DNA of 64,000 nucleotides, from the NCBI GenBank assembly GCA_963677495.2, contig CAXXOU010000001.1, positions 544,001-608,000 of the forward strand, read 5' to 3'. The notes beneath the pieces were generated by a model, which saw only the letters and a list, made by a program, of their open reading frames with translations, ran no database searches and was not told the DNA's origin. Positions 10,766 through 50,232 of this stretch are shown here, piece after piece. The translations under genes were made by a program, and so were the position numbers. The stretch comes from Candidatus Cloacimonadales bacterium (GTDB lineage: Bacteria; Cloacimonadota; Cloacimonadia; Cloacimonadales; JAFGVF01). Positions within the stretch are counted from its first letter, which is position 1; each line of letters opens with the position of its first letter.

Positions 10766-11234
10766 ATACTTTTTCTTTTTTCTGTACTTCGTTCATATGT
10801 TAATATTGTGTGAGCAGTCCTTTTTCACTGATTACCATTTATTTAGACACTTATACATCACTATTCTGCTAACTTCTTTTTCCATCGCTTTCTGCCTACC
10901 ATACAATAAATTAGAAACTTTTTTATTTGCTGTTGAAATTTTTCTATCTTTCAGCTTTCATTGAGCCTTAGAAATGATTTATTGTGCTGAAAAGTAGTTC
11001 AAAAGTGGATTTAAAACTTATATGTCTATCAGTGCCCTATCATAATTCTCATTCAAGGCTGACCAATGTACTATGAGTCTCTTGGGACTCACCTGTTCAG
11101 GATAACAAGAGACTGATATGAGAATGACAAGTATTAGCTAGTTGAGAGTCTCTTATTGTGATGGAGCAATGACACCCCGATGAGAAAAATCTAATTGGAA
11201 ATTATACCTCTCTTATCTACCAGATCCAGCATAC

Positions 11235-11320
11235 TTAACGGGTTGACCACGGGTAAACCGCAGGTTAACCACGGCTTACGTGGTTTGGGCGTGGTTTACC
11301 CGTGGATACTGCGTGGTTAA
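11235..11320. repeat. 11-bp-phased palindromic repeat array
   Basis: ACCACGG/ACCGCAG at 11246, 11257, 11268, mirrored by CGTGG at 11279, 11290, 11301, 11312. Confidence 0.9.
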
Positions 11321-11327
11321 ACAAGCA

Positions 11328-12197
11328 TCATATTCCGGACTTCTCTATAAGATTCAAGTACTTTTTACTCTCTGTTAAGTTCGGATTTATCTTGAATGCT
11401 ATTGATAGGTTTGATTTTGCTTCTTTTAAATCACCTAAATAATAATAGCAAATCCCTTTAATATTGTAAGCTCGTGCTAAATCTCTATCTTTTCGAAGAG
11501 TGCTTGCAAAGAAAGTTCTATCATACAATTTCAAATCTTTCTTATAGCTCTCGCTTTCAAGTTGATTAAGTAATGTTTCCTTAATCTCAGGTTTTTCATC
11601 AAGAGTTAATACATCCCTTTTAAGCATACCTTCATAACGTTTAACGAAGTTGGTCCTGAATGATATACCTTTACTAACAAGTTCAAGTGCTTTATCATAG
11701 TTTTCAAGCTCCATAAAGATGTTTGCAGCTCTAAATAAAGCATAATCAGGCTCAGGGGACACCCTTGAAGATTTAATGTAAAATTCAGCTGTTTTTTCTT
11801 TATTACCCTTCTTCTTGTACACTTCAGCAATATTCAAATAGTTAAGATGAGCTTGTTGAGGATATTTCTTTGCAAGCTTAGTAAGTAAATTTAATGCTTT
11901 ATCATAATGTCCAAGTTCTCTATGAGCAAGAGCAATATTACCAATTGAATCATTATTTTCAGGGTCTATCCTGAGTACATCATTGTATAATTTAATAGCT
12001 CGAGCATATCTTCTATCTTTTAAGGCTAAATCAGCATGTTCTTTTATACCTAGAGCTTCTTCAATTCTGCCTTGGTCCCCAATTTCCTGTAACCACTTTG
12101 GTTGCAACAATGTCATAATACCAAAGACTATCAATAGTGTCCAAACCCCATAAATAACCCCGGGAGTTATATAATCGAAAGGTTTCTTTTTAGACAT
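11328..12197 (-). CDS. Membrane-anchored TPR protein
   Basis: N-terminal TM helix and multiple TPR helices (AIKLYNDVLRIDP, AYNIKGICYYYLG). Start MSKKK at 12197 has a GAGG RBS. Confidence 0.85.
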   Translation of the reverse strand: MSKKKPFDYITPGVIYGVWTLLIVFGIMTLLQPKWLQEIGDQGRIEEALGIKEHADLALKDRRYARAIKLYNDVLRIDPENNDSIGNIALAHRELGHYDKALNLLTKLAKKYPQQAHLNYLNIAEVYKKKGNKEKTAEFYIKSSRVSPEPDYALFRAANIFMELENYDKALELVSKGISFRTNFVKRYEGMLKRDVLTLDEKPEIKETLLNQLESESYKKDLKLYDRTFFASTLRKDRDLARAYNIKGICYYYLGDLKEAKSNLSIAFKINPNLTESKKYLNLIEKSGI

Positions 12198-12201
12198 GTT
12201 T

Positions 12202-13434
12202 CTATTCCTCTGTTGTATGGATGATAAAAAGAACATTCTTTCCCTCTTTTTGAAGTTTGTTAAAAAGCTTTATCGCTCTACTATTCTTTAATCTAAAAAC
12301 CTGCATTGCTCTTAAAGTGTGTTCATTATAAATAAAATCCCACTCTTTAAAATGCTCTATTACTCCTCTCCCACCTTTACCGGTTTCACCTGCACCCAGG
12401 ATAAGTATGTCAGATTTCTTATCAAAAATAGTATTGAGATCACGAGCATTAAAGGCACTCTTCTTATCTACAAGTCTGAAAGTTCCGTTAGGGAATATCA
12501 TGATATCATAGAATGGGATTACAAAACCTTTATACACTGTTAAACCATTAGAATGATAAGTTATCCCTTTGTTCCTGTTAAGTAAGAATGAAACACTTTG
12601 TACCAGGATTAGTAAAATCAGTATTCCTAAGTAAATACGTTTGAATACCTTCCTTTGACTAAGGTGTAAAATAATGAAAACGAGGAGTGAACTAAGCACA
12701 GTAAGCACCACTATTCGAAGCCAAAATACTTTATCTGTAAATAAGGAACTGTTAAAGAGAAGGAAGAGTACAAATACGGCCTCAAAAACAATTAAACTAA
12801 GTGGTGATTGGAAGTAGTCTTTGATCTTCTTATGCCTTACCTTCCATCCTTCTTCTACTATCCGTCCATGTTCTATCATAAAGAACACGAAGAGTAAACC
12901 AATAATTGTACCCCAACCATCTTTACCAATATCGGATATATCGAATACTCTACTAGAGATAAATACTTGAGCAACTTCGTCGAATGTTGAAGCTGACAAA
13001 GCAAGAGCAAATATGCTTTTTATCATCTTAGCATCAGAATAACCTTTCTCCTTAAAAAGACGATAAGCTATGAATGTGAAAATACCGTAGGCAAAGTAAT
13101 GCCAATTAAACTGAAGCTCGTAAAAGGAGTGGTTGAAATAATAATCAGACAGCAAATGACCGATTCTGAAAAGTACTATGATATTCAATAGGGTTATCCA
13201 ACGCCATCTGTCCATCTTTCTTAAAGATATGAATAGAATTGAGCCAATAAAAATCACCCCAACTAACACAACATAAGGTATAAAGACACTTCCCAGATCA
13301 AATCCGGCTCTTGAAATATTACCAATTGCTCGTTGTAAATAGTTCTGAAGCATTAAGAATGGTGTTAATACAAGCAAAGCTATATAAAACACCATCTGCA
13401 AAGTTCTGGAAAAAAACATACTCTCTTTTTTCAT
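12202..13434 (-). CDS. VanZ-like multi-pass membrane protein fused to a C-terminal Mth938-like domain
   Basis: HYFAYG...FDEVAQVFISSRVFDISDI (VanZ-like); C-terminal DILILGAGETG...AIKLFNKL..EGKNVLFIIHTT (Mth938/DUF498-like). Start MKKES at 13434. Confidence 0.65.
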   Translation of the reverse strand: MKKESMFFSRTLQMVFYIALLVLTPFLMLQNYLQRAIGNISRAGFDLGSVFIPYVVLVGVIFIGSILFISLRKMDRWRWITLLNIIVLFRIGHLLSDYYFNHSFYELQFNWHYFAYGIFTFIAYRLFKEKGYSDAKMIKSIFALALSASTFDEVAQVFISSRVFDISDIGKDGWGTIIGLLFVFFMIEHGRIVEEGWKVRHKKIKDYFQSPLSLIVFEAVFVLFLLFNSSLFTDKVFWLRIVVLTVLSSLLVFIILHLSQRKVFKRIYLGILILLILVQSVSFLLNRNKGITYHSNGLTVYKGFVIPFYDIMIFPNGTFRLVDKKSAFNARDLNTIFDKKSDILILGAGETGKGGRGVIEHFKEWDFIYNEHTLRAMQVFRLKNSRAIKLFNKLQKEGKNVLFIIHTTEE

Positions 13435-13507
13435 CTGTTTCCCCTTGAGTATTAAACTGCACAACCTGTATTTAATGGTCAAGAGTAAACTTTCAATATT
13501 TAAAGAA

Positions 13508-13530
13508 ATGGCGACCGGGAGGTCGCCATG
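13508..13530 (-). terminator. Intrinsic terminator after giant exoprotein A
   Basis: ATGGCGACC-ggga-GGTCGCCAT hairpin followed by TTCTTT on the minus strand; two further hairpins lie at 13543-13598. Confidence 0.75.
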
Positions 13531-13614
13531 TTTGGTAGTTAGGGAGATCATTTATGAGATAAAATCTCACCGAAGCCACCCCTAACAGTGGCTCCGGCTT
13601 ATATTAATTACTTA

Positions 13615-16600
13615 TTACTTTTTCTTCTCAGGTTCTGGAGTTGGTTCGATATATTCGACCCAAGTTATGTTTCTGAGAGGATTTGTACGAATACTAAATG
13701 TGTTAACAGCAACAGGTGTGTCACGAACAACACCATCTGTAGCTATAATCTTAGCGAAGTAATGGTTACCTGGAAGCATTGTTGGATCCATAGTAGCCAT
13801 ATTAGTAGGCCAAGTGCTTAAGAAGCTGGCTGGTCCAACTACGAAGTCAGGAGTTGTACCTGCATATACATCGTACATTGTTGCGCCAGTTACAGCATCC
13901 CATGAAAGTTCCATAAGGCCACTTACACCGTTATAGTTAAGTACAAGGTTTGTTGGAGCATCAAGACCGGTTGATGGTTCACCAAGACCGGCTTCAGTTG
14001 TTGCAAATGCAACAGCCATATCGTCAAGCATTGGTCCACCAACACCGTTGTTTCTATATTGGATACCAATTGTACCGTCAATGTTCTCGATACCGATACA
14101 TGCATCACCCTGGATAGTTGATGTACCTGATTCTGTATCAGCATTAAAATAGTTCTGATACTGAATCTTAATTCTTCCGTCAGGATAAAGAATCAACTGC
14201 ATATCCATATATTCATTAGCATCACCGTAATCATTCCACATCTCTACTGTGTAAACGAAGTTACCATTAGCATCAAGACCATAGTAAGGTACTGAAGGAA
14301 CGTTTGCTGTATGAAGATCCATACCAGCAAGAGCAATTACATCATTAGGTGAACCTGCATTTGGAATTGACATGCCTCCGGCAGTAGAACCGGTAGGACT
14401 AGTAAACATACAGTAACCATTTGTTCCGATATAGATCATATCATAATCATTACCGAAGTAGTTAAATGTGAATCCGATAGGAACTTCCATATAACCATCA
14501 TCAGCACTTGTATATGTAGGTGTAGAACCTGTTGCACTAATGTCTACCCAATCGAATGTTGGCTGATAGCCTAAGCCATTACCATCAACAGTACTGTTAG
14601 CAAAGTAGTAACCACCGTAAAGTGTACCATCTCCACCATAGTTAGGATTAGATTGAGTTGTGAAGCTGTAGTTAGCTGCTGGAGGGTTACCTTCACCATT
14701 AATGTTATAACCGGTTACATACCAGTAGTACATTGTTTCATAGCCAAGAGGTGAAGTTAAAGTAACACCAGTTACATTACCAACATCTGTCATTGTGAAG
14801 TTAACATTATCATCACTAACATAGAGATTATAACCATCAGCCCAAACGTCTGAAATCCACTGGAATGTAGTGTATTCACTAACACCAGTTGCTAAGTCAG
14901 CTGGAGTAGTCATTGCGATTTCGCCAGGAGTACTTGCATATGTTGTGAAGCTCCAAGTTGCATAACCTGATGCATTACCATTAGCATTGTAAGGGATAAC
15001 TTCCCAATAGTAAGTTGTTCCACCTGCAAGACCTGAAACATCTGTTGTAAGATCTACGCCATTGTCATACATGTTAAGTATGTTTGTTGGTGGGTTATCT
15101 GTACCGAAGTTAACATAGTAACCATCAGCGATTGTTGCAGCAGTCCACTCAAGTGTAACACCGAAATCTTGGTCTACAGCACCATCAAGAGGGTTAACTA
15201 CAGATGCAGTACCAGGATTTGTACCAACAGTAGTGAAGCTCCATACAGGGCAGTTTGCTGTGCTACCATTCTGGTTATAAGGCACAACCTGCCAGTAATA
15301 CATTGTTAATGGATCTAAGCCACTATATGCATAAGTAAGAGCAGTTCCTTGATCATCACCATTCACGATTGTTGTAGGTGGGTTATCAATACCGAAGTAT
15401 AAGTCATAACCATCAGCATTAAATGCTGCAGTCCATTCTAAGTTTCCATCAGGAAGCTGATCTAAAGCACCGTCAACAGGAGCAACAGCAGTTGCTGCGG
15501 CAGGTGGAGCTATATCATCAAATATATTAATATCATCAATAGAGATATCGCCATAGAAACTTGTAGATTCCATAGCTCTGAAATCTATTTGGATTGTTTG
15601 ACCAATGTATGCAGCAAGATCTACTTCAGCATACATCCAACCATCAGTTGCAGCACCCGCAGGGTTAGTTAAAACAGCAACAGATTGATTCATTGTTGAA
15701 CCTGAATATATGTCGATATGTAATTCTGAAGTATTAGATGAATCACCAATCCAGTAATATAAACCTAACATAGGAGCAGTAAGACCTGTAAGATCCATTA
15801 ACTCACTATAAAGATGAGCAGGTACAGTTTCAGGGGAAGAGTCATCGATTACCATCATGTAACCGCTGTTTCCTGTATGCTCTGCTGTAGCACCATGTCC
15901 ACCTAACTCACTATTACCAATTTCCCAACTGTCACCTGAAACAACAGGGTCGATTAACCAACCTGTTGGAAGTGTATCAGTATCGAATGATTGAGTATAA
16001 GGGAATGTTGTGTTTGTTTGAGTTGTATAAGTTGTGAAGCTCCATACAGGGCAGTTTTCTGCATCACCGGCAGCATTGTAAGGAATTACCTGCCAGTAAT
16101 ATGTAGTTCCACCAGCTAAAGCCATTACATCATATGTAGTAGCAACGCCATTGTCATAATCTCTCACAACATCTGTTGGTGGATTATCTGTACCAACACT
16201 AATCTTATAACCACCCGCTAAAGCATCAGTAGCCCAGCTAAGTTCTAAATAAAGAGGTTGGTCTATAGCTGCATCTGCAGGAGCAATTAAAGCTACAGGT
16301 GAAGGTGGATTAGCAGTTGTTGTGAAACTCCAAACTGCTGCACCGGTTGCATCACCATTAAAGTTATAAGGTACAACCTGCCAGTAATAAGTAGTACCGG
16401 AAGCTAAACCTGAATATGTATAAGTTAAAACATCACCTAAGTCAGTACCGTTAACCATATCTGTAGGAGGGTTATCTGTACCAAAATAAAGGTCATAACC
16501 ATCTGCTAACGCTGATGCGTTCCATTCTAATGTTCCACCAGAAGGTTGATCAACAGCAGCATCTGCAGGAGCAACGATAGTTACAGGGTCAGGAGTACTT

Positions 16601-18144
16601 GTGTCACCTTCACCGGTAACAGGGATGTTTTGTGTTGTACGAGTTGTATTATCTACAATTACGATAACATCATTTAATGCACCGCCAACTGTTGGTGAGA
16701 ATTCAACATCGAATGATGCATTAACACCAACACCAAGTGTAAGTGGATAAGTATTAGCATCAACAACTGTGAAGTCTGTACCTGTTTGCATTGCAATTGG
16801 TGTACTAATAACTAAGTCTGCACCACCCATATTAGTGATAGTAAATGTCTGAGTAGCAGTATCTCCAAGAAGAGTTAAACCATAGTCCCATGATTCATTA
16901 TCAATTGAGAATACAGGCACAGTAGGAACAGCTGCAAATTCCATTCTAATGTTAGGAATTGAGCTTTGGAGATAATTTGCTGCAGGTGGTGTTGCAGGAT
17001 CCGGGTTAGTGCTGTCACTACGATAAGCTAATGACTGAGCTGTTGCAGTTGCTGAGCAGAAGAATTCATCACTTGAGCTATCATAGCCACCAAGGTTTTC
17101 TTCAACAGCAATTACTAAGTTATCAACGTTGTTATAAACGAAAGGCATATCTAAAACAAATTCAATCCAGCCATCGCTATCAGGAAATGGATCAAGAGTT
17201 ACTGAACATACTTGAGTTAAGTTTGCTAATGGAATCCAATCTGAAGTTGTAGCAAACTCTGTGTTTGCTGTATGTCCCATATAGATAACCCAGTCAGTAG
17301 AAGCACTAAGATCTGTAGCACCATTATAATGATACCAAATCTTCTCTATTCTCTCACCAGTTCTATCAATGTCAGCTTGATAGTAAATTGATTGTGTATA
17401 ACTGTATCCATAATATGGTTCTATTGGAAGTGCCTGATTGGTGAGTGCTTCAAAGCCAATCTCAACAATATTTGCACCTAATTCTGTTGTATATGAATAA
17501 ACAGGGTTAGCCCACTCTAATCTTGTTAGAGTATTTTTCGAAACAACCTGCCAGTAATAAGTTGTATTTGTTGTAAGTCTACCAGGTGTATATGAACCTT
17601 GAGTACCTTCAGCACCGGCAACACCATCTGTTACTACTTGAGTTACAGGTGGGTTCACAGTATCAAAATAAAGGTCATAAGTTTCTGTTAAAGCACCCCA
17701 GTTCCATGTAACAGATGCATTTGTAGCAATAGCGCCGGCGCCATCTGCAGGAACAGCATCAGTAATTTCACCAGGTGTATTTGCATTATAATTCACAACT
17801 ATTGGAGTTGTGATACTTGCAGGTGTAGAACCACCAATTCCTGATTCAGCAATGTTAGCACCGAGATGGTCATATATAGTATATTCATTCTCAGAAGACC
17901 AACTACCTGCTGTATATGTAGTAGTGATTTCGTCACCGTTAACAACATCAAAGTTGTGTGATTCCGGTCCGTTACCTGAAGCAACTGTCAAACCGGTTAA
18001 TACGGCAGATCCGTTGACAAGGATGTCAAGAGAACCACCATTCCAACCATCTCCATAAGTATCATACAGCTCAACAGAGAATGTAAAAGCTGATAATGAT
18101 ACAACACAGATGATAAGTGATAATAAAATTAATATTCTTTTCAT
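13615..18144 (-). CDS. Giant acidic exoprotein A (~1509 aa): six Fn3-like repeats, ASH/Ig-like, MAM-like and other beta domains; adhesin or surface-layer-like
   Basis: Signal peptide MKRILILL after a GGAG RBS; repeated DGYDLYFGTDNPP...YYWQVVPYN...WSFTT; FTITNMGGADL; FPYTQSFD...GDISIDDI. Confidence 0.85.
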   Translation of the reverse strand: MKRILILLSLIICVVSLSAFTFSVELYDTYGDGWNGGSLDILVNGSAVLTGLTVASGNGPESHNFDVVNGDEITTTYTAGSWSSENEYTIYDHLGANIAESGIGGSTPASITTPIVVNYNANTPGEITDAVPADGAGAIATNASVTWNWGALTETYDLYFDTVNPPVTQVVTDGVAGAEGTQGSYTPGRLTTNTTYYWQVVSKNTLTRLEWANPVYSYTTELGANIVEIGFEALTNQALPIEPYYGYSYTQSIYYQADIDRTGERIEKIWYHYNGATDLSASTDWVIYMGHTANTEFATTSDWIPLANLTQVCSVTLDPFPDSDGWIEFVLDMPFVYNNVDNLVIAVEENLGGYDSSSDEFFCSATATAQSLAYRSDSTNPDPATPPAANYLQSSIPNIRMEFAAVPTVPVFSIDNESWDYGLTLLGDTATQTFTITNMGGADLVISTPIAMQTGTDFTVVDANTYPLTLGVGVNASFDVEFSPTVGGALNDVIVIVDNTTRTTQNIPVTGEGDTSTPDPVTIVAPADAAVDQPSGGTLEWNASALADGYDLYFGTDNPPTDMVNGTDLGDVLTYTYSGLASGTTYYWQVVPYNFNGDATGAAVWSFTTTANPPSPVALIAPADAAIDQPLYLELSWATDALAGGYKISVGTDNPPTDVVRDYDNGVATTYDVMALAGGTTYYWQVIPYNAAGDAENCPVWSFTTYTTQTNTTFPYTQSFDTDTLPTGWLIDPVVSGDSWEIGNSELGGHGATAEHTGNSGYMMVIDDSSPETVPAHLYSELMDLTGLTAPMLGLYYWIGDSSNTSELHIDIYSGSTMNQSVAVLTNPAGAATDGWMYAEVDLAAYIGQTIQIDFRAMESTSFYGDISIDDINIFDDIAPPAAATAVAPVDGALDQLPDGNLEWTAAFNADGYDLYFGIDNPPTTIVNGDDQGTALTYAYSGLDPLTMYYWQVVPYNQNGSTANCPVWSFTTVGTNPGTASVVNPLDGAVDQDFGVTLEWTAATIADGYYVNFGTDNPPTNILNMYDNGVDLTTDVSGLAGGTTYYWEVIPYNANGNASGYATWSFTTYASTPGEIAMTTPADLATGVSEYTTFQWISDVWADGYNLYVSDDNVNFTMTDVGNVTGVTLTSPLGYETMYYWYVTGYNINGEGNPPAANYSFTTQSNPNYGGDGTLYGGYYFANSTVDGNGLGYQPTFDWVDISATGSTPTYTSADDGYMEVPIGFTFNYFGNDYDMIYIGTNGYCMFTSPTGSTAGGMSIPNAGSPNDVIALAGMDLHTANVPSVPYYGLDANGNFVYTVEMWNDYGDANEYMDMQLILYPDGRIKIQYQNYFNADTESGTSTIQGDACIGIENIDGTIGIQYRNNGVGGPMLDDMAVAFATTEAGLGEPSTGLDAPTNLVLNYNGVSGLMELSWDAVTGATMYDVYAGTTPDFVVGPASFLSTWPTNMATMDPTMLPGNHYFAKIIATDGVVRDTPVAVNTFSIRTNPLRNITWVEYIEPTPEPEKKK

Positions 18145-18159
18145 ATTGGATAACTCCAT

Positions 18160-18514
18160 ATATTAAAGTTAGAAAGCATTTGTTATGTACATACGATAGA
18201 ATACAAAACCCCTGTTCCGTATTCTAATTAGAATTCGAATTTCTCCTTGTAGTCCTGATGCAAAATATTATTGCACCACCCTGATAATTAATCCTTTCGT
18301 TGTCTCTCGAGCCGTGTGGTTATGTGGATGTGTTTTGGTGTGTTTGGCTCTTCAAAACAACTATTTCAGATCTTATTTCTTGGAGCGTTTCCTATCGCTC
18401 CAGTTAGAAATCTACCTTCTTTTAATCATGCTTTAGCAACATTCGTCCTACCTCCTGTTAACTAAAAAGCATGGATACAATGCTAATTTGGAATCATATC
18501 AAAATATCTGTCAA
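18160..18514 (-). ncRNA. Putative structured 5' leader RNA, copy A (with TTGACA at 18509-18514)
   Basis: Colinear conserved blocks and covarying stems shared with 23872-24179; G-U pairs work only on the mRNA strand. Confidence 0.6.
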
Positions 18515-18684
18515 GAGTTTTTTCTCTTTCTCCAATCTTAGATTCCTGTTTGACAGCTTCCACTATACTCCTATTTATCTGAAACAATTCGTTTTGTGAG
18601 TTGTATTCATAAATTACTATTTTCCAAATCAAGTACATAACAATGACCCCTCTTCTAAAAATCTATCCAACAAATCGCAGTCAT

Positions 18685-18778
18685 CCCACTGTTCTCCCAC
18701 TGTGCACGCACTGTGAACCCAGTGAAACAGTGGGTTGGCAGTGCCTTCACAGTGCGTGCACAGTGCAAATACAGTGCG
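18685..18778. repeat. 11-bp-phased palindromic repeat array
   Basis: CACTG at 18687, 18698, 18709 (CAGTG at 18720), mirrored by CAGTG at 18728, 18739, 18750, 18761, 18772. Confidence 0.9.
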
Positions 18779-18826
18779 TTGATTGATAGCGCAGTAAAAG
18801 TGAGTGTAAAGAGCAGTAAATATAGC

Positions 18827-19497
18827 TAAGTTGTTGCAAAAAGCGCTGTGTATGCCACTTTCGGACTTGCGTTGCAGCGATAGCGTGACGCGAGAACGAA
18901 ATCAGGGATTTGCGACTTCGAGGTGCATTTCAGGAAGTCCGTTGCCTTATCAGGCCGACAAACTCCCTGAAATGCCGTAAGTTGTTGCAAAAGGCACTGT
19001 CAATGTCACTCTGAGCGGAGTGAATGGAGTAGTATTCCTAATAGCTGCAAATTGTCTAACACTTCCCTCTGGGAAGCATAATAATAGCCATGTGTCCACG
19101 ACGCATGGTCCGGATTATAGATTGATACAATCCTACATGGATTGCATTGTTCCAATAACATCTCTAATAGTGCAATCCTCATCGGATTGGATGCAAGGTG
19201 ATTCAGGTCCATGGGTCGTGGACCCATTATATATTCCTATCGGAAAAAGCTGTTCTTTAGCTGGGAAACTAAAGCTATCGGAGAGATACATTCGACTGCG
19301 TTCGCAAAACTCACTTCGCTCAGTATGACAGGTCGGACTTGCACCGCAACGAAGCGTGGGGCGAGAACGAAAACATCGGATTACGACTTCGATTTCCAGA
19401 ATTAGCAAGTCACATTTCATTGCGACTCACTTCTTTTTCCAAAGTGCATTTCAGGAAGTCCGTATTCGCATTCACTCTGACAAACTCCCTGAAATGC
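18827..19497. mobile_element. Composite REP/MITE-like region: a ~150-bp unit in tandem, the second copy carrying nested inverted-repeat inserts
   Basis: taagttgttgcaaaa at 18827 and 18978; tcggacttgc...cgacttcga at 18861 and 19333; gcatttcagg...cctgaaatgc hairpin at 18923-18975 and 19444-19497; 20-bp inverted repeats at 19004-19023 and 19311-19330. Confidence 0.7.
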
Positions 19498-19508
19498 AGT
19501 AATGAAAA

Positions 19509-19532
19509 AGGGTGACTCGATCGAGTCACCCT
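19509..19532 (-). terminator. Intrinsic terminator after giant exoprotein B
   Basis: Perfect 24-bp palindrome AGGGTGACTCGATCGAGTCACCCT with a U-run on the minus strand. Confidence 0.8.
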
Positions 19533-19554
19533 ATATATTTTAGTTTATATTAAC

Positions 19555-22500
19555 CTATTTCTTCTTCTCAACTTCCGGAGTAGGCTCAATGTACTCTACC
19601 CAAGTAATAGTTCTTAATGAACGTCTTACTGAGAAAGTAGAAGGAGCACTTACAACTGTGCGAGATGGAGCTTCGTCAGTAGCTGTTACTTTAGCGAATC
19701 TGTAGTTGCCATCAAATGTAGTAGCAGGAACAGAAGCTGTAGTTTCAGTAACAATTCCGATTAAGGTATTCACATCGCATGTGAAATCAGGAGTAGTACC
19801 AACATAAACGTTGTAAGCAGTAGCACCTGTTACAGCATCCCAGTTAAGTACAAGGTCACCTGCAAGATATTCAAGTGTGAAGTTAGCAGGAGCATCAAGA
19901 ACAACAGGACCTGAGCCATCTGCAAGAGCTTCAGCAGATGTTGCAAAAGCAACTGCCATATCGTCAAGCATTGGACCACCAACACCATTGTTTCTATACT
20001 GAATACCTACTGTACCATCAGCGTTCTCGATACCGATACAAGCATCACCTTGGATAGTTGAAGTACCTGATTCTGTACCACCATTTGAGTAGTTACGATA
20101 TTGGATTTTAATTCTGCCATTTGTATAAATGATAACCTGCATGTCCATGAACTCATCATAGTCAGAATAGTCATTCCACTGTTCAACAGTATAAACGAAG
20201 TTACCATCTACATCGTATCCATAGAAAGGATTAGTAGTAGCAACCTGAGTAGTATGCATATCCATAGCTGAAAGTGCAATTACATCGTTTGGTGTTCCAG
20301 ATGCAGGAATTGACATTGAGCCACCTGTTGAGCCAACAGGACTTGAGAACATAACGTAACCATTTGTTCCAAGGTAGATCTGTGTGTAATCATTACCAAA
20401 GTAGTTGAATGTGAAGTTTAAATCAACAGTAGCATAACCATCATCAGCGCTTGTATATGTTGGAGCATTTGCTTCAACCACATCAACCCAACTGAATGTA
20501 GGTTGATAGCCTAAACCATTACCATCTGGTACACTATTTGCGAAGTAGTAACCACCATAAAGTGTACCGTCTCCACCGTAGTTTGGATTAGATTGTGTTG
20601 TGAAAGTTCTGATAGCATCAGGAGCAACACCTTCACCATTTCTGTTATAACCGGTTACATACCAGTAATATTGAGTCTCATAGTTAAGAGCTGTTGTAAG
20701 TGTAACAGCAGTTACAACACCAACATCAGTTTGAACATAGTTTTCACCATCATCACTAATGTAAAGGTTGTAGCCATCTGCCCATACATCACTATACCAT
20801 GATAAAGTTGGATATTCGCTTACACCTTCAGCTGCATCTGCAGGATTGTTGTATGTTATAGCTTCAGGAGCAGCAGCATAAGTTGTAAAGCTCCAAACAG
20901 GGCAATCAGTAGCATTACCGTTTGCATTGTAAGGAATTACCTGCCAGTAATATGTAGTTGCACCACTAAGTTCAACTGCATCATATGTAGTAGCTGTACC
21001 CATGTCTGTCATGTCTTCAACATCTGTAGGTGGATTATCAGTACCAAAGTTAAGATAATAACCATCAGCAACTGCATCAGTATTCCATTCAAGAGTTAAG
21101 TTGAAGTCTTGATCAATAGCTTCATCTGCAGGAGATACTAAAGCTACAGGAGCAGGAGGAGTTGCGTTAGTTGTGAAACTCCAAACAGGGCAATCTACAG
21201 CACTACCATTAGCGTTGTAAGGTACAACCTGCCAGTAATAAGTAGCACCACCGGTAAGAGCACTGTAAGCATAAGTTGTTACGTTACCTTGATCAGCACC
21301 GTTAACGATATCTGTTGGTGGGTTATCAGAACCGAAGTATAAGTCATAACCATCAGCAAATGGAACAGCATTCCATTCAAGTGTTCCTTCTGTAAGCTGT
21401 TCAGTAGCTGCATCAACTGGTGCAACAACAGTAGCTACTGCAGGAGGATTTACGTTGTTAAAAATCTCAACGTCATCAATTGAAAGGTCTCCAAAATAAC
21501 TTGAAGATTCCATTGCTCTAAAATCGAAGCTAACAGTTTGACCTGCAAACGCTGTTAAAGAAACAACACCTTGCTGCCAACCTAAGTCACCATCTGCATC
21601 AGTGAATACTGCAACAGATTCAGTAGTTACTTCGCCATTGATTACATCAATGTGTAATTCAGAAGTGTTAGAATTATCACCAATCCAATACCAGAATGAC
21701 ATTACAGGAGAAGTAAGACCTGCAAAATTAAAGTCTGGAGTATAAAGGTGTGCCGGAACTGTTTCAGGTGATGAGTCATCAAGAACCATCATGTAACCAC
21801 TGTTACCTGTATGATCAGATGTTGCACCGTGTCCACCGGCTTCATTGTTTGCTACTTCCCAACCATTGCTACTTGCATCAGGATCAGCTACCCACTCTAG
21901 TGGTAAGTCGGCAGTATCAAATGATTCAGTATATGGGAAAACAGAAACTATTGGATCAAATCCTTCACCTTGAACTGGAATGTTACGTGTAGTTCTTGTA
22001 ATATTATCAATAATAACAATATTATCATTAACAACGCCGACTGATGTTGCATTGAAAGTAACATCAAAGCTCGCAGACATTGTTGAAGGAATTGTTAAAG
22101 GATATGTATTGGCATCTGTAAGTGTGAAGTTAGCACCTGTTTCTAAAGCGATAGGATCGTTTATAACAAGATCAGCACCACCATTATTAGTAATAGTGAA
22201 AATTTGTGCATCACTATCTGCATTCACATAAACCATACCAAAGTTATAAGATTCTGGATTAATAGAGAACTCAGGCATTTCAGGAACATCACCGAATTCC
22301 ATTCTAATGTTTGGGATATATGCTTTCAAAGTTCCTGATGGAGGATCAGATGGATCAGGATTATTACTATCATTACGGTAAGTAATAGATCTGTTTCCAA
22401 CTACAGAAGTACAGAAGAACTCGTCTGAGCTTGAATCATAGCTTGATTGGTTTTCCTCAACAGCAATAACTAAATTATCAACATTGTTATAAGTAAATGG

Positions 22501-23856
22501 TGAGTCTAAAACAAGCTCAATCCAAGAATCTTCTGTTGGAATCGGATCAAGTGTTTGAGCATAAACCTGAGTTAACTGTTCTGCAGGTAACCAAGCATCT
22601 GTAGTGCCAAACTCTTCCAGATTAGTATGAGCCATGTAGATAACCCATTCAGAGCTACTATCAAGATTGGAAGCACCATTGTAATGGAACCAAATCTTCT
22701 CAATTCTTTGGTCAGCCATATCTATTTCACTTTGTAAATAGATACTCTGAGTGTAAGTATAACCATAGAATGGTTCAATTGGAAGACCCTGATTTGTTTC
22801 AGCTCCGGTACCAATAGAAACAATGTTATCACTCAATACTGTTGTGAATGAATAAGTTTCTTCAGTATCATTGGCAGCATTAGAGTTCTTTGAAACCACT
22901 TTCCAGTAGTAAGTTGTACTTTGAGCTAAACGACCTGGGTTATAAGCACCTGAACCGTTAACAGTACCATCAGTAACAACTTGTACCACAGGTGGATTTA
23001 CAGAGTCAAAGTAAAGATCATATGTTTCTGCTAATGTATCGAAATCCCAGCTAATCTGAGTATTAACTGGTTGATCTGTAGCACCATTTAAAGGTAAAGC
23101 ATTAGTAACTTCTCCTGGTGTCATATCAATATCAAAACTGTATACAGCACTAGCAGCTTGTAAACGAGCTGATGAATTTTTAGCAACGACATACCAATAA
23201 TATGTACCTTCACTAAGAGCACTATCCGGGATATAATTACCAGCAGTACCTTCTTCACCGGCTGTTCCATCTGTAACAACCTGTGTTACAGGAGGGTTGA
23301 CAGTGTCGAAATAGAGATCATAAGTTTCTGTTAATGCTCCAAATGTCCAGCTAAGTTCAGGAGACAAAGTTGTAACAGTAAATGCATCTGTAGGAAGCAT
23401 GTTAGAAACAGCTGTTGGTGCAGCAGGGTTATCAATAACTGCAGTCATGTCAATCTGATAATTACCTTCATTTGAGCCGTAACCTTCAACTATTACATAA
23501 TAATCTGTATTAGCATCTAAAGTTAGGTCATAAAGTGCTGAACGGTTACCAATTGCATCATCATTATAATGTAACATAGTAGTTTGGTCAGCTGCATAAA
23601 CATGTAAATATGTATCGAAGCTTGATTCTCCAAGAGAGATATCAAGATCTGTAATAGCAAATGGAGAGTTAATTCTGTAGAAAGCATCAGCACTTGCATT
23701 TTCGATTGTATTAGTCAAAGTGTTTGTATCACCTGTATCAGTGTATGGGAAATCAGTATCTGTTACTAAAACTGCAGTAGCAAAGTCATCTCCGCCAATT
23801 GCAAATAATCCCACTGATAATACAGCTAACATCATGATTAAAATCATTTTTCTCAT
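19555..23856 (-). CDS. Giant acidic exoprotein B (~1433 aa), paralogue of A with a different (PPC-like) N-terminal domain and five Fn3-like repeats
   Basis: Signal peptide MRKMILIM after a GGAG RBS; same domain set as 13615..18144; N-terminal GGDDFATA...FDTYLHVY...YYVIVEGY. Confidence 0.85.
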   Translation of the reverse strand: MRKMILIMMLAVLSVGLFAIGGDDFATAVLVTDTDFPYTDTGDTNTLTNTIENASADAFYRINSPFAITDLDISLGESSFDTYLHVYAADQTTMLHYNDDAIGNRSALYDLTLDANTDYYVIVEGYGSNEGNYQIDMTAVIDNPAAPTAVSNMLPTDAFTVTTLSPELSWTFGALTETYDLYFDTVNPPVTQVVTDGTAGEEGTAGNYIPDSALSEGTYYWYVVAKNSSARLQAASAVYSFDIDMTPGEVTNALPLNGATDQPVNTQISWDFDTLAETYDLYFDSVNPPVVQVVTDGTVNGSGAYNPGRLAQSTTYYWKVVSKNSNAANDTEETYSFTTVLSDNIVSIGTGAETNQGLPIEPFYGYTYTQSIYLQSEIDMADQRIEKIWFHYNGASNLDSSSEWVIYMAHTNLEEFGTTDAWLPAEQLTQVYAQTLDPIPTEDSWIELVLDSPFTYNNVDNLVIAVEENQSSYDSSSDEFFCTSVVGNRSITYRNDSNNPDPSDPPSGTLKAYIPNIRMEFGDVPEMPEFSINPESYNFGMVYVNADSDAQIFTITNNGGADLVINDPIALETGANFTLTDANTYPLTIPSTMSASFDVTFNATSVGVVNDNIVIIDNITRTTRNIPVQGEGFDPIVSVFPYTESFDTADLPLEWVADPDASSNGWEVANNEAGGHGATSDHTGNSGYMMVLDDSSPETVPAHLYTPDFNFAGLTSPVMSFWYWIGDNSNTSELHIDVINGEVTTESVAVFTDADGDLGWQQGVVSLTAFAGQTVSFDFRAMESSSYFGDLSIDDVEIFNNVNPPAVATVVAPVDAATEQLTEGTLEWNAVPFADGYDLYFGSDNPPTDIVNGADQGNVTTYAYSALTGGATYYWQVVPYNANGSAVDCPVWSFTTNATPPAPVALVSPADEAIDQDFNLTLEWNTDAVADGYYLNFGTDNPPTDVEDMTDMGTATTYDAVELSGATTYYWQVIPYNANGNATDCPVWSFTTYAAAPEAITYNNPADAAEGVSEYPTLSWYSDVWADGYNLYISDDGENYVQTDVGVVTAVTLTTALNYETQYYWYVTGYNRNGEGVAPDAIRTFTTQSNPNYGGDGTLYGGYYFANSVPDGNGLGYQPTFSWVDVVEANAPTYTSADDGYATVDLNFTFNYFGNDYTQIYLGTNGYVMFSSPVGSTGGSMSIPASGTPNDVIALSAMDMHTTQVATTNPFYGYDVDGNFVYTVEQWNDYSDYDEFMDMQVIIYTNGRIKIQYRNYSNGGTESGTSTIQGDACIGIENADGTVGIQYRNNGVGGPMLDDMAVAFATSAEALADGSGPVVLDAPANFTLEYLAGDLVLNWDAVTGATAYNVYVGTTPDFTCDVNTLIGIVTETTASVPATTFDGNYRFAKVTATDEAPSRTVVSAPSTFSVRRSLRTITWVEYIEPTPEVEKKK

Positions 23857-23871
23857 AATAGATAACTCCAA

Positions 23872-30138: not shown

Positions 30139-30283
30139 GATAGACAGCTACGCTCTCACCCACATTAACAGCAATACTGCCCACTGCGGTGCAATTCGGA
30201 TAAGCTGACGTCATATTACAAGAGTACCATTTTCAAGGTCTAAGGACCATTGAAAAGGTATTTTATCCTACTTAATCAATACC

Positions 30284-30439
30284 TTCTCTTTATCTAATCC
30301 CTACAAGAACCTCTTTGCACCGTTAAATAAGTTATGCACCCGATGTGGATAACTTTAAAGGTTCATAGGGAGGGTCTAGGGAGGCTAAAGGGAGGGACAA
30401 GCGAGATTCTTGGTTTTTGTAGGGATTAGATAAAGAGAA
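30284..30439. repeat. 28-bp inverted repeats enclosing a palindrome and 11-bp-phased AGGGAG repeats
   Basis: 30284-30311 versus 30412-30439 match 27/28; AGGGAG at 30367, 30378, 30389 and AGCGAG at 30400. Confidence 0.9.
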
Positions 30440-45389: not shown

Positions 45390-45410
45390 AAACGCTAGAA
45401 TCTCATTCAG

Positions 45411-46550: not shown

Positions 46551-46826
46551 TATCTCCACCTGTTTTATTCATTTTGCGTCAGGCATAATTTATAGGAATT
46601 TATGTCAATATTTGTATTTGTGGCTTTATGTGTCATATCGTTTATGGAGTGCACCAACTGCTTAGGTGCGTCTTGTCACACAACCCGTACCTTCTTAATG
46701 GTTGAGCTTGCGAATCCTTCCGAATGGTACACTTCGAAGTTGCCGATATTTGTGAAGCGGTCACCTGTACGACTGATAAGGAGTTTGGGGAATTGCGTTT
46801 TATGTTGAATGACTTCTTGCGTACTT

Positions 46827-46905
46827 GTAGTGCGAGTTACCCCACTTCCTCATATCTCGGAAGAGCTATAGGTTTTCCGCATTTCCCCGAGCTCGTAAAC
46901 TCGCA
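46827..46905. repeat. Degenerate GTAG-type REP pair
   Basis: GTAGTGCGAGTT...AACTCGCA inverted ends; another hairpin (gcacc...ggtgc) near 46651-46670. Confidence 0.45.
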
Positions 46906-46975
46906 ATGGTGACTGCTAACGTCACTTTACCACCATCATTCTGCCAATCGGTCGTTCAAGGTAAAAAACATACTT

Positions 46976-49360
46976 CTACTTCATCAATACCATCTTAGTA
47001 GTAAAACTTTTATCCGTACTCTTCATCTTGCAGAAATATATCCCAGATGATACTGTTCTATTATCTTCATCTTTGCCGTTCCATACAATGCGATGCTCTC
47101 CTATCTCCATCTCCTCATCAGATAAAGTCCTGATTCTTTGCCCTTTCACATTGTAGATGGCAATTTCAACTTTCGATTTCACCGGTATAGTAAATGAGAT
47201 ATTAGTTGTGGGATTAAACGGATTAGGGTAATTAGCCAGACTGTATGGTTCAAGACTTGTAACATTATCTTGTGCATTTGTATACCCGGGGAACTCATAA
47301 CACCCTATATCAATACTGCTTCCATAAATCCTATCCTCACCGGCAAGATCATATAAAGGGAACTCGTAGTTTGCAGGGAATAGTGATAAATCCATTGTCC
47401 CTGCATCTATAGCAGGAGAAGGTCCCACTTCTGTATCATCTCCGGATAGATAGTAGTATTCAGGGAATGCCGGATCACCACCTACAAATAATGGATCTGT
47501 TCCAATTAGGTTATCTGAGCCAAAATCAATTGGTTCATCTTGATAAACTTGATAAATATCTTCAGTTCTTGAAAATAAATTGAAATTGATGTTTGTACCC
47601 CTAAAGCAATAGAAATCGAAATTAAATCCAGTATTGTTTACAACAATGTTATTGTAGAACCTATCTATTGAATCATCAATCATAAAGTATGAATTATCAC
47701 TTCCACTATTATTAGCAAAAGTACTATTTACTATTGATACATTAGAAAATCCACCAAAGATATCAAATACTGATGGTGCCTGAGAAGTATAATTATTTGC
47801 ATAAAGGCAACTATCTATTAATAATGTTGGTGATGTCGTTAATGTAAAATGTCTGAAAGTAGCATATCCACCTAAACCATTATGCTCATTGTTAATGAAC
47901 TTTGAATTGATTATGTGTATTGAGTTTCTGGCATATATATCGTATAAACCACAAGCTTGAGCAACATCTTGGATAGGAATACTACCAGCAATGTTATTTG
48001 TCATTGTAACATTACTCATTTTTATTGATTCGATATAAGCCTTTACAATTGTTCCCCATCTTGCAAAATTATTTCGGAGAATCGTATTTTTGATTTCTAT
48101 ATTTGTCTCATTACTATTGAAATTTAAAATCCCATAATTAGTTTCAGAGTTTTCAACTATAGCATTATTTATAGTGGAGTTATTAGTTGCATATGAGCAA
48201 ATTGCTGGTGCATTTAAGCTTGTTACACTTAAATCTTTAATCAACATGTTATTTTGATTTGAACCAAATGAAACAGCCCCAGACACAGGAGTATCTACAA
48301 AATCTTCGGCAAAGACATGTGTGAGATTCGGGGATGTACCTTGTAATATTGTGTTTTCTTTTAAAACAATTGATACACCTTGTCCATTTATCTCTTCAAA
48401 GAAATCACCTTCTAACAGATGCACCGTTAGAGGATTATCATCACTGGGATTCAACTGTTGAAAAGCCTTCCAAGTAGTTCTTAAAGGATTTTCAGGAGTT
48501 AAACCGGAATTAGTATCATCTCCACTCATAGACACATATAGGTCATTCTCAATTGGTGATATGAATGTTCGTTCGATATCAAACACAGGAAACGGATAAT
48601 CACCTACTTGAGAATAGGTATTAACATAATAACTTGTAGGCTCGTACCATGTAAACATGTCTAAATAGATATCTAATGCAAATCCATGAGTAAAACACCA
48701 GCCAATGTCCATGCCCTGAGGACTATAGTTATTGAATATGCTACAGCGATTATATTGATCAAAAATGATTTGAGAATAGTCAGTACTATTGCTCATAAAG
48801 CACACACCCCCACCTATAAATCTTCCAATGTTATTATATACATTGATATTGCTCATAGTGCAAGCAACGTTTTCAAAAGCAAAACAGATTCCTCCCCCTT
48901 GTGATGCTTGGTTATTATAAATATTTAAATTCATTAAATCTAACTCAATACTATTATGTAAAAACAATCCTCCACCAAAAACTTGCCAGCTATCAATATC
49001 ATCACTATCCCAATAAATATATCCTCGACCACCGGTTATTGAAAACCCTCTAATTGTACAATTAGTTAGGTTTTCGTAGCATAATATGGTTGAATTTTCT
49101 TCGTTGGAGCCGTCAATAATGGTATCTGCAATATAAGTAGTATCACCAGTAGTAGCTTCCAATGTGCACAATGTGACATTAGATTTATTACTAAACTCAA
49201 TATTCTCAAGATATGTACCGGGATGTACCAAAACGGTATCTCCGGTTACAGAGAGATCAATCCCCTCTTGTATAGTTGCATAATCCATCGGAATGTTAAT
49301 TATGTTAGCGAGTAGTAGAATTGGTAAAAGCATTAGTAGTAAAAGAAAGCTTCTTTTCAT
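46976..49360 (-). CDS. Secreted right-handed beta-helix (pectate-lyase-like) protein with T9SS-type C-terminal domain
   Basis: DYATIQEGID..GDTVLVHPGTYLENI; LYVSMSGDDTNSGLTPENPLRT; SPAIDAG..DIGCYE; NYPNPFNPTT...SSGIYFCKM. Confidence 0.85.
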   Translation of the reverse strand: MKRSFLLLLMLLPILLLANIINIPMDYATIQEGIDLSVTGDTVLVHPGTYLENIEFSNKSNVTLCTLEATTGDTTYIADTIIDGSNEENSTILCYENLTNCTIRGFSITGGRGYIYWDSDDIDSWQVFGGGLFLHNSIELDLMNLNIYNNQASQGGGICFAFENVACTMSNINVYNNIGRFIGGGVCFMSNSTDYSQIIFDQYNRCSIFNNYSPQGMDIGWCFTHGFALDIYLDMFTWYEPTSYYVNTYSQVGDYPFPVFDIERTFISPIENDLYVSMSGDDTNSGLTPENPLRTTWKAFQQLNPSDDNPLTVHLLEGDFFEEINGQGVSIVLKENTILQGTSPNLTHVFAEDFVDTPVSGAVSFGSNQNNMLIKDLSVTSLNAPAICSYATNNSTINNAIVENSETNYGILNFNSNETNIEIKNTILRNNFARWGTIVKAYIESIKMSNVTMTNNIAGSIPIQDVAQACGLYDIYARNSIHIINSKFINNEHNGLGGYATFRHFTLTTSPTLLIDSCLYANNYTSQAPSVFDIFGGFSNVSIVNSTFANNSGSDNSYFMIDDSIDRFYNNIVVNNTGFNFDFYCFRGTNINFNLFSRTEDIYQVYQDEPIDFGSDNLIGTDPLFVGGDPAFPEYYYLSGDDTEVGPSPAIDAGTMDLSLFPANYEFPLYDLAGEDRIYGSSIDIGCYEFPGYTNAQDNVTSLEPYSLANYPNPFNPTTNISFTIPVKSKVEIAIYNVKGQRIRTLSDEEMEIGEHRIVWNGKDEDNRTVSSGIYFCKMKSTDKSFTTKMVLMK

Positions 49361-49573
49361 AGTCACGACCTTTTCAGGACACAATATTTGGAAGCTTCTG
49401 CAGATTCAAAATATTGGGTCAATGTCTTTTAGTTTATTCGCTACATATATTTTCTATGTGTCAAGAATAAAAGCAAGACTTCTGGTTTCTTCTTGCAGAA
49501 GATTAACTATCATAGATTAAATTCAGGTCAGTGGAGCTTGCCGACTTCGTCGTCACAGCAACTCGGGAGAGTC

Positions 49574-49769
49574 GCAGTACAACGTAGGGCATGCAGCCTG
49601 CTTGCTCACAGCTCGATAGAGCTGTATTCCCCGCGACAGAACTTGATTATATTTACTAAAGAACTTTAGTAGTTTATGCCAATTAACGTCAGTGGCTGGG
49701 CTTAGCTGCGCTAAGCGGACTAAGCTGGCAGCGTGTCCTACGTTTCGACGTGCAACGTCATTGTACTGC
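49574..49769. repeat. REPIN-like element with GTAG-type ends and internal hairpins
   Basis: AACGTAGGGCATGCAGCC (49581) versus inverted GGCAGCGTGTCCTACGTT (49727); outer GCAGTACAA/TTGTACTGC. Confidence 0.7.
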
Positions 49770-49781
49770 TCTGCCTTAATT

Positions 49782-49877
49782 CCAATGAGACACCTATTGA
49801 ATCCCCGTTAGCTTCCCGTTAGATCCCCGTTACAGCGAATGGGATTCGGATTGGTTTCTGATAGTGTAGAGATACTT
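49782..49877. repeat. 11-bp-phased repeat array (degenerate palindrome)
   Basis: CCCGTTA at 49804, 49815, 49826; opposite-sense AATGGG/GATTGG/GATAGT at 49838, 49849, 49860. Confidence 0.75.
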
Positions 49878-50232
49878 GATAGTTTACGATTGTGAGAGAG
49901 CAATCAAACACTAGGTCCAGCCCTGTCCACCAGGTCCATAACTCAGATAAACCTGAACAAATATATTCCCGCAAAAGATAAGATTATTAGCATCATTTTC
50001 CCCTCATTGCACTATCATAATAAAGCAGAGAAAACTGTCCGATTCCAGGGAGTCTCTTGGGGCTCTCTGGGGCAGGAGCATAAGAGACTGCTAGAAAAGT
50101 AGGCAGAAAGGGATAGTAATTAACCCCGAATAGTGAGAGTCTGATGATAGACAGATGTCTGATTTCTAAACGTGCGAAATCAACTTGTAGAGGTACAACG
50201 ACTAGTTATGAGATGAAAAACCTAATTCTATA

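Follow-up and report, generated by a model that had tools for sequence, protein, structure and literature searches.

The stretch of DNA analysed here (hereafter the window) comprises 64,000 nucleotides of a Candidatus Cloacimonadales genome, G000 (3.41 Mb in 4 contigs, 37% G+C; window at C1:544001-608000), and its genes are of the Fibrobacterota-Chlorobiota-Bacteroidota (FCB) type, with type IX secretion system (T9SS) sorting tails, BatD and a C25 peptidase. Four of its intergenic spacers, referred to as loci A to D, hold arrays in which a short core recurs every 11 bp. These had been singled out in an initial annotation as palindromes of one architecture with a private core at each locus. The observation is real but was mis-framed: each locus is one copy of a sharp-edged, multi-copy dispersed family, and the four are copies of four different families resembling miniature inverted-repeat transposable elements (MITEs). 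All four share the architecture of a single class of MITE-like elements, in which the sequence follows a lattice of one unit per helical turn; within this class, one subclass multiplies the operator of DnaA. The features concerned are, in window coordinates:

11238..11322, no strand assigned: locus A, copy of the ACCACGGGTTA family (~35-37 copies; edges from BLAST, array from Tandem Repeats Finder, TRF)
18665..18853, + strand: locus B, copy of the CACTG/CAGTG family (~190 bp, 65-66 full copies; BLAST and TRF)
30284..30439, + strand: locus C, element of 156 bp bounded by terminal inverted repeats (TIRs), 27-37 copies (BLAST and TIRs)
30284-30307 and 30417-30439: left and right TIRs of locus C (23-24 bp)
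30332..30352, no strand assigned: DnaA-box-like palindrome of locus C, TTATGCACC-CGA-TGTGGATAA (window 30332 is C1:574332)
30366..30409, + strand: direct units of locus C, four of 11 bp each (TAGGGAGGGTC, TAGGGAGGCTA, AAGGGAGGGAC, AAGCGAGATTC), with no inverted arm
49802..49866, + strand: locus D, copy of the CCCGTTAG family (~17 full copies, ~25 array matches; BLAST and TRF)

Array calls were made with TRF, and arrays of at least 2.5 copies are termed strong. Ten of the 45 TRF rows in the window have period 11, and six of these belong to the four loci (11238-11278, 11279-11305, 18684-18715, 18739-18766, 30365-30396 and 49801-49832), confirming each array, with period 11, at the position first given for it. 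Genome-wide, 554 rows of period 11 were obtained, 314 of them strong, compared with 171 of period 10 (36 strong) and 195 of period 12 (22 strong); period 22 contributed 78 rows. Three dinucleotide-preserving block shuffles of the genome, which served as the null, yielded 12, 12 and 8 strong period-11 arrays. The enrichment is thus ~30-fold, and the supposition that such arrays might be no commoner in the genome than in shuffled sequence fails (314 versus 8-12). An alignment-free measurement, of the kind that the initial annotation had suggested as a check, also displayed the expected peak: self-match in intergenic DNA was 29.17% at lag 11, the neighbouring lags 10 and 12 gave 27.46% and 27.54%, and the peak recurred in weaker form at lags 22 (28.31%) and 33 (28.03%). 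The peak was absent from coding DNA, where a period of 3 only was observed.

Merging of the period-11 arrays resulted in 419 loci in the genome. The open reading frame (ORF) calls used are crude and cover 89% of the genome; by these calls, 69 of the 255 loci with a strong array of period 11 or 22 lie mostly inside ORFs. An exact reverse complement of the 6-mer core was found no more than 50 bp away in 163 of 303 strong arrays, while the reversed and the complemented core, used as controls, gave 3 and 2. The 520 arrays with 11-letter consensus units (merged loci) contain 319 distinct units, which fall into 140 groups at up to one mismatch, the five largest comprising 131, 105, 42, 29 and 24 arrays. 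The limit of one mismatch was adopted since clustering at two percolates by chance. Similarly, clustering of the array loci with their flanks by BLAST merged 299 of the 419 into one cluster because neighbouring repeats are shared. The array class comprises ~400 loci with at least 15-20 core types, filling spacers of this genome.

Two weaker phasings reported from the spacer of locus A (AAAAGT at 10990 and 11001; CTATCA at 11026 and 11037) did not stand up, being two-copy matches only that TRF does not call. The expected number of occurrences for the given word is 0.06 and 0.04, respectively; however, ~25 hexamers would recur at lag 11 by chance in 64 kb (our arithmetic from a per-base match of ~27%), and the words were chosen post hoc. 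The earlier statement that the arrays are not CRISPR repeats is borne out: their units are 11 bp long and abut one another, and whole arrays recur as copies, as opposed to the 23-47 bp repeats and unique spacers of CRISPR. A relation to the cyanobacterial STRR/HIP1 repeats was considered and rejected, HIP1 occurring twice against ~14 expected and the genes being of T9SS/FCB type.

The elements are short (85-190 bp), non-coding, dispersed and sharp-edged, and thus within the size range of MITEs (under ~300 bp). Copy numbers are 66 for B, 37 each for A and C, 17 for D, and 23, 12 and 27 for three further families designated ii, iii/iv and fam1 (core CCAAGTG). TIRs were found for C, for ii (~30 bp), and for iii/iv and fam1 (12 bp with degenerate extensions), and the distance between them is nearly constant within a family. 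The TIR ends of the C family lie 156 bp apart in all three close TIR pairs (7 pairs found), those of ii 172 bp apart in 9 of 10 and those of iii/iv 132 bp apart in 11 of 13. For fam1, the span is exactly 132 bp in 29 of 35 pairs, and the variants of 121 and 143 bp are shorter or longer by whole units. When six fam1 copies are written in rows of 11 letters, the register is held across the entire 132 bp and into the flanks; the rows on the left carry a degenerate inverted core, CTTGG, those on the right CCAAG[T/G]G, and the outermost row is the TIR. An 11-bp register is likewise kept by the consensus of each of A, B, C, D, ii and iii. Median pairwise identity within families is 65-77%, with 15-bp flanks included.

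Among the window loci, A consists of 3-4 direct units (11238-11278) followed by four inverted units, CGTGGTTTACC (11279-11322). BLAST coverage jumps there from 1 to 23-37 copies at 11238 and drops beyond 11322, and GTGGCATACTT-type TIR ends occur in the family consensus and in some copies. In locus B the word CACTG starts at 18687, 18698 and 18709 and CAGTG at 18720, 18728, 18739, 18750, 18761 and 18772, so that the step is 11 bp except for a single 8-bp jump at the centre. The same build is found in the B consensus, with word starts at 27, 38, 49 and 60, then 68, 79, 90, 101 and 112. The tail of locus B (18777-18853) consists of AGNGNAGTAAA-type words that are also phased at 11 bp. BLAST of the family against the genome returned 128 matches, of which 65 are at least 150 bp long, at 82-91% identity; no clear TIR was defined for this family. 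Locus D holds three direct units, starting at 49804, 49815 and 49826, and then a decayed inverted part (AATGGGATT, GGATTGG). The shared architecture first proposed for the four loci is therefore real, but the palindrome is confined to A and B, C being a direct array and D three direct units with a decayed inverted one.

The difference in build is reflected in the predicted folding. As single-stranded DNA (ssDNA), loci A and B fold strongly (-25.2 kcal/mol, z -4.8, and -35.7 kcal/mol, z -6.8, respectively), whereas the array of C folds no better than its shuffles (-1.2 kcal/mol, z +0.56) and that of D has no significant fold (z -0.45). Across 65 copies of B, the core words are 98.9% conserved (45 columns) versus 90.9% for the spacers (49 columns; Mann-Whitney p = 3e-7). 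In the consensus hairpin of the same copies, which has 42 pairs, 2400 of 2698 cells are paired and 298 broken; compensated pair changes numbered 9 versus 6.6 ± 2.0 in shuffles, i.e. without enrichment. Complementarity between the flanks of fam1 elements was no higher within a copy than between copies (z = -1.1). Neither did the elements display an orientation bias relative to flanking genes in tandem contexts (same:opposite, B 29:29, C 11:9, A 23:21, D 6:8), and a search of the window with Rfam 15 gave no match at the gathering score. Conserved cores, lack of covariation, even gene orientation, the absence of an Rfam match and the existence of direct-only arrays in combination favour the view that a protein reads these arrays in the duplex, binding at every turn of the helix, rather than that the arrays act as folded RNA or DNA. 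Of the functions first put forward, the platform for a cooperatively binding protein is consequently the favoured one, with core conservation, absent covariation and two of four arrays without a hairpin on its side. The slippable hairpin or RNA drew no support from covariation, gene orientation or Rfam and is conceivable for A and B. The supposed association with genes for secreted proteins likewise lacks support: B and D do lie upstream of surface-protein genes, the other two loci do not, and genome-wide there is no bias of orientation towards flanking genes.

The palindrome of locus C belongs to a motif, TTATNCACA-N3-TGTGNATAA, that is common to five families (TAGGGAGGGTC, the family of locus C, and CACGAGAGGGT, AGTAAGAGAGT, ATCAAGAGAGT and CCTTGGTGGGT). 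The locus C copy has two mismatches to TTATCCACA-N3-TGTGGATAA, or one if position 5 is taken as N. At up to three mismatches the genome contains 80 palindromes. An array lies no more than 60 bp away from 71 of them, 13 bp being the commonest distance, and any of the four bases is found at position 5 of the 9-mer. The palindrome begins 33-34 bp, or three rows, ahead of the first unit and is in register with the lattice; in four of the five families the spacer between palindrome and array holds one inverted unit core. With up to one mismatch allowed, the genus has 75, 14, 58 and 55 palindromes in its four genomes, compared with 0-2 in each of 37 others from the order. All seven genomes of the sister genus hold one or two; three of them were examined, and in every case a palindrome precedes dnaA, confirmed by Pfam, at a distance of 38-41 bp. 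A search at zero mismatches gave no palindrome in 10 genomes from two other families of the class. The 58 exact palindromes account for ~116 of the 322 exact TTATNCACA words of the genome. In G000, dnaA is flanked on either side by clusters of DnaA boxes, including TGTGGATAA-TT-TGTGTATAA, two boxes 11 bp apart from start to start. On the basis of these clusters and the change of sign of the GC skew there, the word is read as the DnaA box of the lineage. The putative oriC is at C1:868090-869780 (L077), where DnaA boxes flank dnaA in runs spaced 10-11 bp, and the GC skew of contig C1 switches sign near 850 kb. In G000 the palindrome ahead of dnaA is degenerate (TTATTCACA-TAA-TGTGAGTGT), but that of the sister genus is intact.

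The density of arrays in relatives was sampled on 100-400 kb per genome. Strong period-11 arrays numbered 35 per 400 kb in G000, 14 per 400 kb in G001 of the same genus, and 10 and 11 per 200 kb in G013 and G014, which represent two other families of the order. G004 and G005 had 1 and 5 per 200 kb, G006, G024, G027 and G031 had 1, 1, 2 and 1 per 100 kb, and G041 and G065, from other families of the class, had 0 and 0 per 100 kb. The cores in G013 and G014 are unrelated to those of the window, e.g. AGCAATACGGT and AAGCGTTAATC, and the anatomy is the same, with 3-5 direct units, a short centre and 1-3 inverted units. The B family is present in all three other genomes of the genus, in none of eight from the rest of the family and in none of 29 from the rest of the order sample. 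Between G000 and G001 its hairpin part is 81-92% identical, the flanking genes being 69-75% identical. A scan of the genome collection for the B word found nine loci, five on the chromosome of the same genus and one in a 'Candidatus Zophobacter franzmannii' metagenome-assembled genome; the remaining three are single matches in unrelated taxa and were taken as chance. The spread over lineages is patchy, as it is for mobile elements. The core turnover at orthologous loci for which a comparison had been suggested was observed in so far as the G001 spacer orthologous to that of locus A differs; what it contains, however, is another 11-bp family, CAACGGGAGAC, and the apparent turnover is the landing of different mobile families in the spacers.

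We propose that these are MITE-like elements on a one-turn lattice, read as duplex DNA by a polymerising protein with DnaA as a host cofactor, a reading to which we give an even chance of being correct. Each unit consists of a conserved core of 5-7 bp and a freer spacer of 4-6 bp on the 11-bp lattice, the units reversing direction across a short centre and the outermost ones serving as TIRs. A protein may bind the duplex once per helical turn, on one face, and polymerise in opposite directions along the two arms. Its identity would most likely be that of the factor that copies or moves the elements, transposase- or recombinase-like and acting in trans. DnaA would be recruited as a host cofactor, and the box-bearing elements would add ~150 strong DnaA boxes to the chromosome. 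The duplex reader is modelled by analogy on ParR, which acts on the 11-bp iterons of parC, and on DnaA, which acts on 9-mers spaced 2 bp apart in oriC.

Several results weigh against this proposal. The analysis brought up neither a binding protein nor a transposase or autonomous element for the arrays. A search of this genome for parents with the same ends (5 TIR words) gave no pairs of TIRs at a constant distance in the range of 0.4-6 kb, and no paralogous family of DNA-binding genes is enriched beside the arrays. In the flanks of 58 complete copies no constant direct duplication of the target site is visible, and the flanks continue the degenerate inverted repeat. If each of the 15-20 cores had a reader of its own, as many readers would be needed, and none was seen. 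The copies are fairly diverged (median identity 65-77%), so that current mobility is not demonstrated, and the conservation of the cores may in part reflect which copies the searches still recognised. The class is missing from most lineages sampled and is thus not a conserved host function of the order. Finally, the units adjoining the DnaA boxes show no resemblance to such boxes when compared in register (in family ii, 0-1 of 8 specified positions, by eye on the consensus). DnaA alone would consequently be insufficient for the lattice, which implies a second reader; the idea that the units are weak DnaA boxes in phase with the palindrome was rejected as their sole explanation, the matches being poor.

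The elements could instead be ssDNA hairpins, akin to repetitive extragenic palindromes (REPs) and REPINs, that fold where the replication fork exposes single strands and are cut and pasted by a Y1 HUH transposase of RAYT or IS200 type, the 11-nt repeat providing alternative registers. The strong folds of A and B would suit this unlikely explanation, as would the 14 Y1_Tnp matches of the genome (e.g. C1:910648-911109 and C4:1048444-1049124), nearly all flanked by repeats on both sides, and one copy of B lies 100-300 bp upstream of the gene Y8, which is similar to REP-associated tyrosine transposases (RAYTs), albeit on one side only. However, the repeats flanking the Y1 genes are dispersed families of short, classic REP hairpins, not 11-bp arrays, and a RAYT link is not supported. 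A period-11 or period-22 TRF row of at least 1.9 copies occurs within 1.2 kb of 8 of the 14 Y1 genes, with ~4 expected by chance (an estimate), and no array directly flanks any of them on both sides. Arrays such as C, D and the other direct ones cannot fold and compensatory changes are absent; moreover, Y1 genes are present in 32 of 41 relatives, including all seven of the sister genus, of which the two sampled, G004 and G006, lack arrays. Relative to the G-rich replication strand there is a weak skew of B (22 versus 40, p = 0.03) and of A (10 versus 23, p = 0.035), uncorrected for 10 tests, but none in five other families. Three REP controls are unbiased as well, which leaves the strand test with little power. 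A folded product of another kind, i.e. structured RNAs or transcription signals such as small RNAs, terminators or leader elements, is highly improbable. Locus A begins 5 bp past a stop codon, A and B could form stable RNA hairpins, and the A-form helix also has ~11 bp per turn; set against this are zero Rfam matches, gene orientation close to 50:50, the lack of covariation and the direct arrays that do not fold.

Domestication by the host, in which elements that spread a single time are now retained as docking tracks used by a nucleoid or segregation protein or, in the box-bearing class, as a datA-like reservoir of sites titrating DnaA and tuning initiation of replication, is likewise unlikely. 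It would account for cores that stay above spacers in conservation even in old, diverged copies, for a B hairpin part better conserved between species (81-92%) than the flanking genes (69-75%), for the ~116 of 322 exact DnaA-box words that come from palindromes and for the fixed length of the lattice. Yet within a single family of the order the distribution is already patchy, the cores are many and unrelated, orthologous spacers hold different families, placement fits spacers that tolerate junk, and conservation between species can also stem from the continuing spread of master copies. An origin as a mutational by-product, in which slippage or template switching at short palindromes makes 11-bp units that have neither reader nor function, appears distinctly improbable. 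Length variants by whole units (121 and 143 versus 132 bp) and units of one array that differ mainly in the spacer are as such a process would leave them; on the other hand, a single period (11, with its multiples 22 and 33) prevails among cores and lineages that are unrelated, the arrays sit in multi-copy elements with fixed edges, TIRs and unit order, the cores are selectively conserved, and sister lineages of similar G+C (33-34% versus 37%) are without arrays. About equally doubtful is a derivation of the lattice elements as mobile copies of phage or plasmid cis-sites, packaging or origin iterons and DnaA boxes, that capture a terminase small subunit or an initiator. Of eight core patterns with which viral contigs were scanned, six gave no match. 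One of the two matches is a perfect GACCACGGGTT array of 4.5 copies, 530 bp downstream of the gene for a T7-type terminase large subunit, and the other, found in three contigs of one phage lineage, is an array of CTAGGGAGGGT type in a gap of 1.3 kb that directly precedes a packaging module. If this derivation were true, docking tracks of one site per turn could cause host DNA, and the elements with it, to be packaged and spread, or the invader's protein could be soaked up by decoys, and the box class would also re-tune initiation of the chromosome through its ~150 strong DnaA boxes. The viral arrays (L115:4000-4048 and L116:4000-4033, also L117 and L118) have cores as in loci A and C and lie in non-coding gaps beside terminase genes; they may be packaging-site repeats, and chance resemblance is possible.

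Taken as proposed above, as MITE-like elements on a lattice read in the duplex, the arrays can be compared with several known systems. Bacterial MITEs are short, TIR-bounded, non-autonomous elements such as Correia/NEMIS, RUP and ERIC, and the present elements are best filed as MITE-like: they are short, non-coding and multi-copy, lie in spacers, have TIRs and a fixed length, and different families occupy orthologous spacers. They differ from MITEs in that the whole body of the element is an 11-bp lattice with direct and inverted arms, one class carries a DnaA-box palindrome, no parent insertion sequence (IS) with the same ends was found in this genome and no target-site duplication of constant size is visible. 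With REP, REPIN and bacterial interspersed mosaic elements and their RAYTs they share an extragenic position, palindromic form (A and B), great number and mosaic arrangement, in a genome that has repeat-flanked Y1 genes, and an IS targets one array family as some IS target REPs. In contrast to REPs, the arrays are periodic rather than a single stem of 20-40 bp, many are direct and do not fold, and the RAYT-like genes here are flanked by other short hairpins. Transposon ends with several transposase sites are known from IS21, Tn7 and Mu, and eukaryotic foldback and CACTA elements have subterminal repeats. These resemble the present elements in repeated protein-binding words in both orientations on two arms, and the IS21-family element of this genome itself has 22-bp direct repeats at its ends; here, however, the sites abut one per turn and fill the whole element, and there is no linked transposase. 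The layout of a plasmid oriV, with DnaA boxes adjoining direct iterons, is found in class ii only and, among the window loci, in C only. Typical plasmid iterons are 17-22 bp long. Unlike an oriV, which is single-copy in its replicon and adjoins the gene of its initiator, locus C has no rep gene beside it, the TIR-bounded elements of 132-172 bp contain no ORF, and the palindrome occurs 75 times in the genome.

In working principle, parC with ParR and the DnaA arrays of oriC come closest. The parC site of plasmid R1 comprises two sets of five 11-bp iterons, bound by approximately one ParR dimer per iteron (PMC2241845), and corresponds to the arrays in unit and set size. It is a single plasmid site beside parR/parM with direct sets, whereas here there are hundreds of chromosomal sites with many cores and inverted sets, none of them beside a cognate gene. 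No DNA-binding gene family is enriched in the neighbourhood of the arrays, although no search was aimed at parR/parM. The low-affinity DnaA sites of oriC form clusters of four, 2 bp apart, with the consensus TGTGGATAA (PMC6070618). Such origins share with class ii the layout of strong DnaA boxes beside an array of sites phased at 11 bp, with two arrays of opposite orientation. The oriC region of the organism itself is similar, its DnaA boxes being spaced at 11 bp.

In bacteria, short dispersed repeats are commonly classed as REP hairpins or as MITEs without evident internal order. The present case is a whole class of elements ordered as one unit per helix turn, which recurs with new cores in distant relatives, and this lattice order is the signature of a protein polymerising along the DNA. 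Identification of the reader would add a new mode of recognition or copying for small elements. The box-bearing families amount to a mobile element that multiplies the initiator's own operator, which is unreported in the literature searched. With 75 palindromes here versus one upstream of dnaA in the sister genus, the tolerance or use of extra DnaA boxes is directly testable. Searches of the freely accessible literature returned no description of such elements, nor of prokaryotic foldback MITEs of this build, and a word search of two Cloacimonadota genome papers (PMC8542988, PMC12590816) was without hits for DNA repeats, transposons or palindromes.

The surroundings of the four loci contain further repeats, among them:

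18854..19500, no strand assigned: other dispersed repeats beside locus B, ~20-57 copies each, of the short-hairpin REP type and not 11-bp arrays

Similar repeat mosaics occur at 30200-30280 (46-58 copies), 49990-50090 (~33 copies) and 11020-11120 (5 copies). REP-like neighbours had been noted at three of the four loci, and in fact other dispersed repeats (5 to ~58 copies) flank all four. REP-type words beside B also flank the RAYT-like gene Y10, and some of the REP families that flank Y1 genes fill the spacers at 18854-19500 and 30200-30280. The gene next to locus A, the stop of which the element follows, encodes a TPR protein (11328-12236, - strand). Locus B lies between two paralogous giant surface proteins with MAM/Ig domains (13615-18159, 1514 aa, and 19555-23871, 1438 aa); in the corresponding region of G001 the paralog set is rearranged and the spacer is ~160 bp versus ~1 kb. 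The neighbours of locus C are a DUF4901 protein and an ORF without a Pfam family.

Short-read contigs from four DNA runs of one sample, possibly the source sample, contained no indel or empty-site variants at the loci; among the runs listed for window 10000-19999 there was none of RNA. A 5.68-kb contig spans locus A with 0 differences; the contigs break at B and C (window 18705 and 30244-30381), and the joints are cross-matches between copies. Breaks at B and C are as repeats cause them, and in practical terms the arrays thereby fragment short-read assemblies of Cloacimonadota genomes.

One gene family alone is enriched beside arrays, the orfA of an IS3-family IS (6 of 6, p = 7.6e-6). Each of the six copies of this IS (orfA 144 aa, orfB 262 aa) has a fam1 element, oriented as the IS is, 0-40 bp to its left, which looks like targeted insertion beside fam1 elements. 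Their positions in G000 are:

C2:359334-360860, IS3-family IS
C3:92570-94102, IS3-family IS
C4:220856-222370, IS3-family IS
C4:1237653-1239200, IS3-family IS
C2:141700-143200, IS3-family IS
C2:234300-235814, IS3-family IS

The word TGCAGT is common to the right end of this IS and the end of the fam1 element. The ends of the IS3, IS21, IS110 and Y1 elements present differ from the TIRs of the array elements, and IS21 was rejected as a mobiliser, the 22-bp direct repeats at its ends being of other sequence. The IS21-family element (C3:~196700-199000) is represented by 16 istA and 17 istB copies that are near-identical, and one IS21 copy interrupts a class-i element within its DnaA-box palindrome.

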